Shown here in pieces: positions 29,021 through 35,866 of a DNA stretch of 64,000 bases (its first letter is position 1; each line of letters opens with the position of its first letter). The notes below the pieces were generated by a model. The model saw only the letters and a list, made by a program, of their open reading frames with translations, did no database searches and was not told the DNA's origin. Origin of the DNA: a virus (lineage: Duplodnaviria; Caudoviricetes); IMG/VR virus record IMGVR_UViG_3300025470_000019, positions 1-64,000 of that record, one strand, 5' to 3'. The translations under genes were made by a program, and so were the position numbers.

Positions 29021-29617
29021 TTAGTCTAACTGGGATAGATGTTTATTTGATTTTAGATGTCTATCCCAGTTCATACTACCTTTAATAGACCTTGCACAAA
29101 CTTTACAATGATTAACAACCCTATTTTTTGCGGACTCTGATAATTTTTTCTTTGTTGCTTCTGAATGTTTAATTCCAACCGTTCTTTTTAGGTTCTCATG
29201 AACAGGCTTGCCTTTCAATCTATTTGATCTTTCTTTCTTGGCCTGTTCTGAGTGTTTACATCCTTTTGGTTTTCCTTTTATCATTGGCAAACCAAGGACG
29301 AGTCTCACTTCGTTTGTCATGCCCTTTGTGTGGCTCCAAGAACCGTGGCCTCCAACTGTCATGTTATACGTGTCATCTCTGCGTATAAAGGCATCATTGA
29401 CAATCTGAGATTCTTTCAGATACATATCTTCTTCGGAATCCAAATAAAATAGTATTGTTTTTGTGAAAGATTCTACACCATATTTTTTTATAGCGGACTT
29501 TATTGCGGTTCCTGAACCCATATATCTATCTTGTGGATTATGCGTTTTATGTGAACCTACATATATTTTATCATTGACTTTATTTTTGACTTCATATACA
29601 GTATAATAAATAGGCAT
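29021..29617 (-). CDS. GIY-YIG homing endonuclease, antisense
   Basis: YTVYEVKNKVNDKIYVGSH...YMGSG; KHSE repeats. Confidence 0.9.
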   Translation of the reverse strand: MPIYYTVYEVKNKVNDKIYVGSHKTHNPQDRYMGSGTAIKSAIKKYGVESFTKTILFYLDSEEDMYLKESQIVNDAFIRRDDTYNMTVGGHGSWSHTKGMTNEVRLVLGLPMIKGKPKGCKHSEQAKKERSNRLKGKPVHENLKRTVGIKHSEATKKKLSESAKNRVVNHCKVCARSIKGSMNWDRHLKSNKHLSQLD

Positions 29618-33084: not shown

Positions 33085-33261
33085 TTAGTTCTTGGCTAAT
33101 TCATCCTGTATCATTTTCTGTAATAGTCCAACGTAGATGTCTCTTTCAAACGGGAACATCGACTCTATTTCATTAATTGAATATTTATGGTGCTGAGCCA
33201 AATTGAATATCAGATAATAGTAATTCAAAAGGCTAGTATGACTCAGCCCTATTGAAAAAAA
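33085..33261 (-). CDS. gp51: gp51-like baseplate assembly chaperone, lacking a clear start
   Basis: SLLNYY.LIFNLAQHHKYSINEIESMFPFERDIYVGLL; open from the T7 run in the -1 frame of gp26. Confidence 0.8.
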   Translation of the reverse strand, partial: FFSIGLSHTSLLNYYYLIFNLAQHHKYSINEIESMFPFERDIYVGLLQKMIQDELAKN

Positions 33262-33959
33262 TCGCGATAACCCTCCAGCTTGATAAGTCTATTGTTGCCC
33301 TTCTCGTTTACGTACTTAATGTCGTATGTGAGTTTTGGCATCTTGTCAAGGAAATCGTTAACGATTTCTTCATATTGCTTCGAATTCAGATTATTTATGA
33401 ATTCAACCTTTTCCTCCTGAGAGAAGTCAGCTCCAATATAAGTTTCTTCACCATCAACAATAACGTCAATACAAGCCGCAACCATCTCGATAGCTGAGTC
33501 AACATTTGTTACATTGAGCTTGTTGATAGTTAATAGAGTTTCAAGAGTAGGAAAGTTTAGAGAAATAGCAATCTTATCGCTGATCTGGAATGACTTCTTT
33601 TGTTCAGGATTAAAAGCAGGAACGATGGTGTCCAAATCGACATCAAAATCGCGAACAATGCCATCCTCTTTGTCTCTATAACGCAGATTCGAAACGTTAT
33701 TGACCGATCGTGCTCTCAGCTGAAGGAAGAAATACTCAACATCAAACAACGGAAGGGTGCTTACGTTAATATCCGAAATGCAGCAATTCTGAAGAACCTG
33801 ACCGAGTGCGTTAATAACTTCTCGTTCTTCTCCACTTTCTTCAGCGATAAGGAAGATCTTTTCTTCTCTCACTGTAAACTGTCTGAACCTGACAGGATTC
33901 GCCACGGAAAGCAGTTTAATTTCAAATGTTGGCATATCCAACACTGGTAACTTAGCCAT
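33249..33959 (-). CDS. gp26: Baseplate hub assembly protein gp26
   Basis: FRQFTVREEKI, FDVEYFFLQLRARSV, FLDKMPKL, LEGYRDFF. Confidence 0.9.
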   Translation of the reverse strand: MAKLPVLDMPTFEIKLLSVANPVRFRQFTVREEKIFLIAEESGEEREVINALGQVLQNCCISDINVSTLPLFDVEYFFLQLRARSVNNVSNLRYRDKEDGIVRDFDVDLDTIVPAFNPEQKKSFQISDKIAISLNFPTLETLLTINKLNVTNVDSAIEMVAACIDVIVDGEETYIGADFSQEEKVEFINNLNSKQYEEIVNDFLDKMPKLTYDIKYVNEKGNNRLIKLEGYRDFFQ

Positions 33960-33976: not shown

Positions 33977-34648
33977 TTAAGTAATTTTTGGTGGCACTCC
34001 AGGAACATATGGTGGAATATTTCCTGGGTTATTCACTGGGGTTGTTTCGTTTTGTAATTGTCCAGTAATTGGAGCTGGTGTCTGTCTAGGAGTTGCGTCC
34101 TGAACACCAGAGACAGCTCCAACAGTTTCTGTATAGTAGAAGTATGCAAACGTGACAGGAATAGAGATCATGCTGTTTCTAGCTGCCCAGCTGAAAGGTA
34201 CTGAGCCGATCGTTTCAGGAAACGCCAAAGAAAAATGCCAGTTCGCGATCTTTCTGCCATACGTATCGTACTGAATCAAATCCATATCTGATGAGTAGTT
34301 GGTTCTATATTGGACTTGCTGAAGATTTTTACCGTGTGTGTCAAACAGAAGATCAGCCCAAGAATTGAGTAGCTTCAGATTGTCTGCTCTCGCATCGCAG
34401 TAAACAGAAACGTTCAGTCTCTCGAATCTAGCGCCAACAACATATGGCTGTCTGAAGCCTTGACCTAGACGAGCAATCTCGACAGTCTCTGCGCTTCTTG
34501 AAGGTAGAGTGGCAGAGTGGCAAAGCAGCGATAGCTTTTTGCCGTCTCCTTTGAGGATGCTAGGAAGCGTGATCAGTAATTCAAAGTGAGCTTCTCTTGC
34601 GAATCCCTCAACATTATTCTGAATAAATTCGTTGATATTAAAAGCCAC
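33977..34648 (-). CDS. gp54: Baseplate tail-tube initiator gp54-like (tube fold)
   Basis: GTG start MAFNINEF; ATLPSR, QYD..G, FPETIGSVPFSW. Confidence 0.75.
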   Translation of the reverse strand: MAFNINEFIQNNVEGFAREAHFELLITLPSILKGDGKKLSLLCHSATLPSRSAETVEIARLGQGFRQPYVVGARFERLNVSVYCDARADNLKLLNSWADLLFDTHGKNLQQVQYRTNYSSDMDLIQYDTYGRKIANWHFSLAFPETIGSVPFSWAARNSMISIPVTFAYFYYTETVGAVSGVQDATPRQTPAPITGQLQNETTPVNNPGNIPPYVPGVPPKIT

Positions 34649-35240
34649 TTCTTGAATCCTTCCAAACGGTGCTCGTTGATGCTTTCTGGAATTTCTGCGT
34701 TGGTAGAAACAAAGCAGTGTCCCAATCTTTCGGTTCCACATAAATGAACCTAGACTTAACTTGATTGGTCAAATAATGTTTAAAGCATGGCTTAAACAGA
34801 GCCAAATTCGAAGCACCTTTCAAAGTCTGGTAGCTGATATTTAGTTTGGTTGAGTCATCATATTTTTGATTATTCGTTACAGTGTATAACGCATCCATAA
34901 GACGAGCTCTTAATACTGGCTGGAGGTAATGTAGGTTCAGACCATAGAACCCATTATCCGCTGGACCAACCATAAAGATTAGAGGGAAAGCGTCCCAGTA
35001 TGGTAGTTTCTCTTTGTGTTTGGCATCATAGACATACATATACATACGTCCAGGAAGAACCTTGTCCGAGAGAGTCGCACCCTCAAAGAACTTATTCTGT
35101 TGGAGTCTTGGTCCTCTGTAATCAGCAGCTTTTCTACGGAACCAATCTCGAGCATCTTTCGTTTTGTTTGGCACAATGTTCTGCGCAGCCGCACGTTTGA
35201 GCACGCTGCTATAGACATATTGTTCGGTTGTTTGTGCCAC
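34638..35240 (-). CDS. gp2: DNA end protector gp2
   Basis: PGRMYMYVYDAKHKEKLPYWDAFPLIF, GLNLHYL. Confidence 0.92.
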   Translation of the reverse strand: MAQTTEQYVYSSVLKRAAAQNIVPNKTKDARDWFRRKAADYRGPRLQQNKFFEGATLSDKVLPGRMYMYVYDAKHKEKLPYWDAFPLIFMVGPADNGFYGLNLHYLQPVLRARLMDALYTVTNNQKYDDSTKLNISYQTLKGASNLALFKPCFKHYLTNQVKSRFIYVEPKDWDTALFLPTQKFQKASTSTVWKDSRSGF

Positions 35241-35253
35241 AAATATTCCTTTT

Positions 35254-35317
35254 TATAAATAGATGGTAGTCGCGGATGGCGGTCCCACTACCACTAATAC
35301 TAACTGGAGTATCAGCT
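35254..35317 (+). promoter_or_regulatory. Late promoter plus conserved two-hairpin leader (copy 3)
   Basis: TATAAATA..GGTAG-TCGCG-GAT-ggcg-GTC-CCA-CTACC-ACTAA-TACT-aactgg-AGTA-TCAGC-t-ATG. Confidence 0.75.
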
Positions 35318-35866
35318 ATGATATATTTATATATTAAACAACACCAAAAAACTGGTCTGAAATATTTCGGAAAAACCGTAAAAGCCAATCCATTCAAATA
35401 TAATGGTTCAGGCAGTTATTGGTATAAACATCTAAAAGAACATGGAAAACACATTAGAACCATAGAAATATGGGGGTTCGATGACCAACAGTTGTGCACA
35501 CAATTTGCTTTAAAATTTTCTAAAGACAATAATATAGTAGAATCTAAAGAATGGGCGAATTTAGTCCCTGAAGATGGTATAAGTGGAGGCAGCATCGGTA
35601 GCCGTAAAGGAAGAAAATTATCAGAACAAACAAAAGCAAAAATGTCTAAAACTAGAAAAGGATACAAATATGGTCCTGAGTTTGCAGAAAGATTTAGACA
35701 AAGATTATTAGGTGTTCCTAAAACTGAAGAACAAAAACGCAAAATGCGCTTGGCAAAATTAGGCAAACCTCAATCCGAAGAACACAAAATGAAACGATCG
35801 GAAGCTATGAAACGAGCACACGCTATTAAAAAGTTATCCCTAAATCTTTCTCAGTTACGATCTTAA
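35318..35866 (+). CDS. GIY-YIG-type homing endonuclease, antisense
   Basis: IYLYIKQH..TGLKYFGKT...Y.GSG.YW; start reassigned to ATG after leader. Confidence 0.88.
   Translation: MIYLYIKQHQKTGLKYFGKTVKANPFKYNGSGSYWYKHLKEHGKHIRTIEIWGFDDQQLCTQFALKFSKDNNIVESKEWANLVPEDGISGGSIGSRKGRKLSEQTKAKMSKTRKGYKYGPEFAERFRQRLLGVPKTEEQKRKMRLAKLGKPQSEEHKMKRSEAMKRAHAIKKLSLNLSQLRS

Follow-up and report, generated by a model that had tools for sequence, protein, structure and literature searches.

The -1 frameshift of E. coli dnaX (tau/gamma) takes place at the heptamer A_AAA_AAG, with an SD-like element upstream and a hairpin downstream. Among phages, the E/E' tail chaperone frameshift of P2 uses a T-run site, and a -1 frameshift of the tail assembly chaperone (TAC) genes was reportedly found by Xu, Hendrix and Duda in 2004 to be conserved in long-tailed phages. 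The G-T frameshift, of which lambda gpG/gpGT is the familiar case, has been described as conserved among long-tailed phages "except T4" (Atkins et al. 2016, PMC5009743). T4 makes the pair from two genes, 26 and 51, which would account for the T4 group being the reported exception to the frameshift. T4 gp26 and gp51 are both listed as hub assembly chaperones, gp51 not being found in the particle (Leiman et al. 2010, PMC3004832). The gp51 of cyanophages was noted to have "only ~20%" of the usual length, and gp51 to be "missing only in Aeh1", no frameshift being proposed (Sullivan et al. 2010, PMC3037559).

The DNA analysed here, called the window throughout, is a stretch of 64,000 nucleotides from an uncultured freshwater T4-like phage. 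We consider it very probable, on comparative grounds, that its gene 26 carries a programmed -1 ribosomal frameshift with products of 236 and 291 amino acids, and that in position, in architecture and, as modest scores suggest, in N-terminal fold this pair corresponds within the T4 group to lambda gpG/gpGT. Its placement as a new member of the tail-chaperone frameshift class appears well supported. A full-text literature search with thin coverage of subscription journals found no published report of a slip in gene 26.

Gene 26 and its neighbours

All features of the module are on the minus strand. Those which define it are as follows.

33977–34741, minus strand: tube-like gene of the gp54/gp19 family, the next gene upstream of gene 26; matches phrog_45 (tail tube) with E 3.5e-32
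33249–33959, minus strand: gene 26, zero-frame ORF of 236 amino acids; PF12322, phrog_150; short ("G-like") product, a putative hub/tape-measure chaperone
33255–33261, minus strand: slippery heptamer T_TTT_TTT in the X_XXY_YYZ register (plus strand: A7), separated by 3 nt from the gene 26 stop
33085–33261, minus strand: -1 frame extension (the "gp51" part of the predicted long product), 58 codons including the two re-read Phe codons, then TAA
31192–33075, minus strand: tape-measure-like gene (gp29 position), 627 amino acids, GTG start after AAGGA; weak phrog_1533 match, E 2e-5

The product of gene 26 possesses the PF12322 [T4_baseplate] domain (E 7.4e-50, residues 9–235, 170.1 bits against a cutoff of 24.5) and matches positions 5–233 of the 282 in phrog_150 ("baseplate hub"); judged by these profiles, it is a homolog of T4 gp26. 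Searches with it returned 46 homologs, all of 204–246 amino acids, and the identical 236-residue protein was called on 10 contigs. Megablast against GenBank phages found no relatives of the region at the DNA level.

The tube-like ORF also scores 26.4 bits against PF23849 [Phage_TTP_2], slightly below the 27-bit cutoff, and its counterpart is annotated as gp54 in Aeh1 and in the KVP40-like phage R11Z. At the position of the 627-residue ORF, HTVC008M and phiM12 have a gene annotated as tape measure. The order on the minus strand is tube-like gene, gene 26, gp51-like extension and tape-measure-like gene, and it is the same in phiM12, HTVC008M, Aeh1 and R11Z. The first-pass annotation had proposed this order for the window, and the matches to phrog_45, PF12322, phrog_634 and phrog_1533 uphold it.

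As listed, the tube-like ORF overlaps a gp2-like ORF (34638–35240) by about 100 nt. Since its PHROG match starts at residue 31, the true start is probably further downstream. The tail-chaperone module is flanked by homing-endonuclease-like genes at 29021–29617 (minus strand) and 35276–35866 (plus strand). One of the two is of the GIY-YIG/NUMOD3 type with a C2H2 zinc finger, and the other, bearing a NUMOD3 motif, sits between gp2 and gp4 in the opposite orientation.

The slippery heptamer and the -1 frame

Gene 26 ends with GGT TAT CGC GAT TTT TTT CAA TAG, the stop codon occupying 33251–33249. From 33261 the -1 frame reads FFSIGLSHTSLLNYYYLIFNLAQHHKYSINEIESMFPFERDIYVGLLQKMIQDELAKN and continues to a TAA stop at 33087–33085; the peptide which it specifies begins FFSIGLSHTSLLNYYYLIFNLAQHHKYSINEIESMFPFERDIYVGLL. 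This extension matches phrog_634 ("baseplate hub assembly catalyst", gp51) with an E value of 4e-20, and it also matches phrog_150 at positions 231–279, contiguous with the gp26 match to the same family. The predicted long product is of 233 + 58 = 291 amino acids.

The first ATG of the extension is at residue 35. The only canonical start before it is a TTG at residue 12 (ORF 33085–33228), and no SD-like motif is visible in the sequence upstream of that codon. Sequence and translation therefore bear out two observations made when the window was first read, namely that T TTT TTT at the end of gp26 leads in the -1 frame into the gp51 motif, and that gp51 lacks both an ATG near its start and an evident SD.

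Conservation in related phages

The loci compared were 79 from IMG/VR and those of SynMITS9220M01, S-MbCM7, phiM12, pf16, Mendera, ACP17, Aeh1, R11Z and HTVC008M, VmeM-32 being added later. In the 90 distinct readable loci gp26 is 26–51% identical to the window protein, a range at which synonymous sites are saturated. In 90/90 loci the extension is in the -1 frame and an in-register T_TTT_TTN precedes the gene 26 stop by 0–24 nt, a count which, like those that follow, ignores shared ancestry.

Positions 1–6 of the heptamer are invariant in all 90, and only position 7 varies (T, C or A). A check of gene 26 3' ends across T4-like genomes had been proposed, and the slippery run proved to be invariant in Kyanoviridae, phiM12, pf16, Mendera, ACP17, R11Z, VmeM-32, Aeh1, HTVC008M and the 79 IMG/VR contigs. 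The base preceding Phe-Phe is T in every one of the 90 loci against a background of 72% for Y-ending codons, while the codon to which it belongs may be GAT, AGT, AAT, GCT, ACT, TCT, GGT or TTT (eight codons, seven amino acids). The first Phe codon is likewise always TTT (90/90, background 69%); the second is unconstrained (TTT in 45 loci, TTC in 43 and TTA in 2). As judged from these alignments, the constraint on the heptamer is one on nucleotides, it matches the X_XXY_YYZ rule exactly, and the conservation far exceeds chance.

Immediately downstream of the heptamer, near-invariant columns fall on second codon positions of the -1 frame (+10 T in 90/90, +16 T in 88/90, +22 A in 87/90). Amino-acid conservation in this frame begins right at the heptamer, and the peptide has the motif FF.[ILV].LSH..L.NYY. 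When the 58-residue extension was used in a tblastn search, 491 GenBank phage records were matched; each of 60 sampled rows overlaps the gene 26 end and, with one exception, begins at query residue 1. A profile search of 1.84 billion representatives found the extension in 2173 clusters. It is from sequence comparison that the signal, its strict conservation, the coding of the -1 frame from the slip site onwards and the collinearity with T4 gp51 described below are known.

These matches imply that hundreds of phage genomes in GenBank lack a ribosomal-slippage annotation at gene 26. Since the cyanomyoviruses are among the most abundant viruses of the ocean, the recoded gene would be very widespread.

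In Salmonella phage Det7 (KP797973.1, Ackermannviridae; positions 2200–2410 of the extracted locus) gene 26 is likewise followed by the extension in the -1 frame. The sequence at the junction, GAG ATT TTC ATT TAA, contains no X_XXY_YYZ heptamer, and a 43-residue ORF is annotated there from an internal ATG. The extension may be reached in this phage through a weak or non-canonical slip, or it may have a separate start.

Relationship to T4 gp26 and gp51

T4 gp51 (249 amino acids) consists of a complete PF12322 domain (residues 1–201, E 3.9e-52) followed by the same extension. It covers positions 13–280 of the 282 in phrog_150 in one chain and also matches phrog_634, and the profile of the window extension aligns with its residues 200–244 (hhalign, E 3.6e-5). 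Because T4 gp51 is a PF12322 domain plus extension, the 291-residue fusion predicted for the window is collinear with it through the junction. T4 gp26 (208 amino acids) is the short form, and ends GLKEFFELL.

Like the predicted pair, the T4 proteins come as a short and a long product with the PF12322 domain; the short one has the same GL.[DE]FF end, and the long one the same C-terminal extension. They differ in that T4 has two separate, divergently transcribed paralogous genes and no slippery run, whereas in the window one gene must make both. Among complete genomes, T4 has two PF12322 genes while SynMITS9220M01, phiM12, Aeh1 and HTVC008M have one each. There is also one in the 79-kb record from which the window was taken, a record which is 47% complete and whose missing part may hold a second.

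Separate genes 26 and 51 are present in the lineages of T4, Gelderlandvirus NP4, Dhakavirus IME08, Lazarusvirus fHyAci03, Krischvirus JSE and Aeromonas phage 25. The heptamer is absent from all six of these two-gene lineages, even where Phe-Phe is kept (GAG TTC TTT in T4; also GAA TTC TTT). VmeM-32, without an annotated gene 51 beside gene 26, has GAT TTT TTT and a -1 ORF.

We lean towards the reading that the frameshift is ancestral to the T4 superfamily, with gp26/gp26-51 as the equivalents of gpG/gpGT, and that T4 and its close kin exchanged the recoding signal for a gene duplication. The members of the superfamily which this reading takes in are the cyanomyoviruses, pelagiphage, rhizobiophage, KVP40-like and Aeh1-like phages, and others. 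The exception made for T4 would then be only apparent. Most of the T4 superfamily would fall inside the tail-chaperone frameshift rule, with T4 itself as the two-gene version (cf. PMC5009743), and the long-unclear roles of T4 gp26 and gp51 would become those of tape-measure/hub chaperones, which provides a concrete functional hypothesis for both proteins. The frameshift would also account for the "only ~20%" gp51 of cyanophages and vibriophages and for the "missing" gp51 of Aeh1 (PMC3037559). In Aeh1 (AY266303.2; positions 2205–2390 of the extracted locus) the extension is found in the -1 frame after GAT TTT TTC, and is unannotated in GenBank.

Proposed mechanism and candidate stimulators

From these comparisons we infer the slippage itself, its efficiency, its stimulators and the binding partners of its products as follows. 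Most ribosomes would read GAT TTT TTT CAA TAG and release the 236-residue gp26. A minority, with two tRNA-Phe on UUU UUU, would slip back by one base on U_UUU_UUU and decode 56 more codons in the -1 frame, giving the 291-residue gp26-51 fusion. The predicted fusion junction is ...GYRDFFSIGLSH..., and the peptide expected to span it is DFFSIGLSHTSLLNYYYLIFNLAQHHK. The two products would be the single-gene equivalent of T4 gp26 and gp51, that is, of the hub assembly chaperones. The gp26 part common to both would act on the tape-measure/hub protein, and a second contact would be added by the extension.

Two elements beside the heptamer may stimulate the slip, and both are put forward as candidates only.

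33271–33276, minus strand: SD-like GGAGGG, candidate dnaX-type upstream stimulator, 9 nt upstream of the heptamer
33189–33249, minus strand: hairpin with core GCUGAGUCA / UGGCUCAGC, candidate downstream stimulator, beginning 5 nt after the heptamer

The conserved Glu codon at the SD-like site is GAG in 32 loci versus GAA in 20, the background in these genes being 26% GAG. Of 89 loci, 25 have GGAGG and 52 have some SD-like 4-mer. The hairpin has a minimum free energy of -18.7 kcal/mol (z -2.88). In 28 members of the clade its core is paired in 92% of cells versus approximately 30% with slid partners, and there are five double-change cells in two pairs; since both arms are coding, the evidence for the hairpin is moderate. 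RNAalifold on the ungapped family alignment found no family-wide downstream RNA structure, and only clade-level stems are supported.

Both elements of the dnaX type (SD-like sequence ~10 nt upstream, stem-loop 5–9 nt downstream) are present in the window. The resemblance to dnaX extends to the homopolymeric heptamer, with GGAGGG about 9–10 nt upstream and the hairpin 5 nt downstream. Unlike the shift in dnaX, which truncates the protein, that proposed here would extend it, and the stimulators of the window are candidates and specific to the clade.

Start codons and alternatives to ribosomal slippage

One might suppose that gp51 is a small ORF translated alone, from any start or through reinitiation after the gene 26 stop, and that the T run merely reflects the coding of Phe-Phe. 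The extension is annotated as a CDS in SynMITS9220M01, phiM12, pf16, Mendera and HTVC008M, and GenBank annotates hundreds of cyanophages so. An ATG falls within extension residues 1–12 in 31/87 loci, and one clade has an ATG ("MW...") 14 codons upstream in the -1 frame. This last codon overlaps a conserved Cys codon of gp26 in the zero frame (A|TGY) and so could be an incidental by-product.

The start codons of gp51, for which a comparison across T4-like genomes had likewise been suggested, are not conserved. In 33/87 loci there is no ATG, GTG or TTG before residue 12, and hence no canonical start ahead of the conserved core; in the window there is no ATG before residue 35. An ATG with an SD-like motif occurs in only 3/87 loci, SD-based arguments being weak for cyanophages. 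Across the 2173 clusters gene callers start the extension at profile positions 1, 4, 5, 6, 8, 10, 12–14, 16, 17, 20 and 22, or 14 codons upstream. Most candidate starts lie downstream of the heptamer, where conservation sets in. Furthermore, the coding of Phe-Phe fails to explain the invariant wobble T and the invariant TTT of the first Phe, because TTC is free at the second Phe and in the two-gene phages. T4 gp51, finally, bears the extension on a full gp26-type domain. Independent translation as the general explanation is accordingly improbable, though some clades may initiate gp51 separately.

Less probable still is transcriptional slippage, in which RNA polymerase would add one U on the T run such that a fraction of the mRNAs encoded the fusion in frame. 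The window has a run of seven T, insertion of one more would yield an identical protein, and rare metagenomic proteins have both parts in one frame, joined at Phe-Phe. Efficient polymerase slippage, however, needs longer runs, of about 8–9, and in approximately half of the loci the run is of six T only (T_TTT_TTC), position 7 not being constrained to T. The signal fits the ribosomal X_XXY_YYZ pattern, and in some loci an SD-like element and a hairpin are spaced as at ribosomal sites.

A homopolymer error of sequencing or assembly in what is truly one continuous ORF, or a decaying gene with an untranslated remnant, might come to mind with an error-prone T run in a metagenome assembly, but is effectively refuted by the comparative data: the same frame break is found in 90/90 independent loci including finished isolate genomes, the 10 contigs carry an identical 236-residue protein, the probable source contig, the only one to span the T run where contigs of other runs stop short of it, shows no indel, and the amino-acid sequence of the extension is conserved across the 2173 clusters.

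Three metagenomic proteins have an unusual arrangement. In P0129 the PF12322 domain is joined in frame to the extension at the Phe-Phe junction, and in P0064 an in-frame fusion runs through approximately seven residues which match neither product; these two are either natural fused variants or the result of homopolymer indels. In P0081 the extension is followed by a metallo-beta-lactamase-like segment, and this protein may come from a chimeric assembly.

Fold of gp26 and comparison with tail assembly chaperones

The AlphaFold2 model of gp26 has a pLDDT of 90.9. When residues 1–91 were compared with known structures by VIA-align, the best matches were three structures of the phage tail assembly chaperone type, the HK97 TAC [2ob9, Z 7.2], 3fgx [Z 7.2] and B. 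subtilis YqbN [3klu, Z 7.0], the next row being at 4.5. With the domain modelled separately, the order was unchanged (Z 7.4, 6.7 and 6.6, then 4.9 and 4.0). The chaperone alignments comprise 83–86 residues with an rmsd of 3.7–4.7, at Z values below 8 and under the safe level of the tool. Foldseek ranked the same three entries first with the domain model (E 0.14–1), and found nothing in the PDB at E <= 0.001 for the model of the whole protein. Neither a profile search of PDB sequences nor a permissive Pfam scan found a sequence link of gp26 to TAC families. The models are suggestive of a gpG-like chaperone fold in the N-terminal domain. A complex prediction for gp26 with the 627-residue tape-measure-like protein gave no answer (score 0.00), and speaks neither for nor against binding.

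Like lambda G and T, the window has two overlapping ORFs between a tube-family and a tape-measure-like gene, a heptamer a few codons before the upstream stop, and a downstream -1 ORF without its own start. The arrangement is kept despite sequence divergence, and the best structural matches of the N-terminal domain (2ob9, 3klu), at modest scores, are of the gpG type. Unlike gpG, gp26 is larger (236 amino acids), has an extra C-terminal alpha/beta domain and has no detected sequence similarity to TACs; lambda T has ~140 residues as against ~56 in the window extension. A G/GT pair is further marked by a fusion made at a low ratio and by two forms which are both required for tail assembly, are missing from virions and bind tape measure and tube. 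The homologs in T4 figure as baseplate-hub assembly factors, and any binding of gp26 to tape measure or tube is a prediction. With P2 E/E' the window shares a contractile-tailed phage as host of the signal, a U-rich heptamer and a location upstream of the tape measure, the protein family being unrelated. The equation of gp26/gp26-51 with the G/GT pair, which the first-pass annotation had offered as an inference, gains support from the architecture of T4 gp51 and from the N-terminal fold matches, the fusion protein and its role being predicted.

The C-terminal domain of gp26 (residues 87–232, window 33249–33700) repeatedly matched C-terminal peptide-binding/dimerisation domains of Hsp40/DnaJ proteins (2q2g, 7zhs, 3agz, 3i38, 6jzb, 3lz8 and 1xao). 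These matches are weak (Z 2.8–3.9 over ~46–49 residues) and may be due to chance. Cys-x-x-Cys pairs are found in the C-terminal region of T4 gp26, gp51 and many relatives, and are lacking in the window protein. In Acinetobacter phage Abraxas [MT385367.1] the gp26 homolog is named "tape measure protein assembly chaperone" in GenBank.
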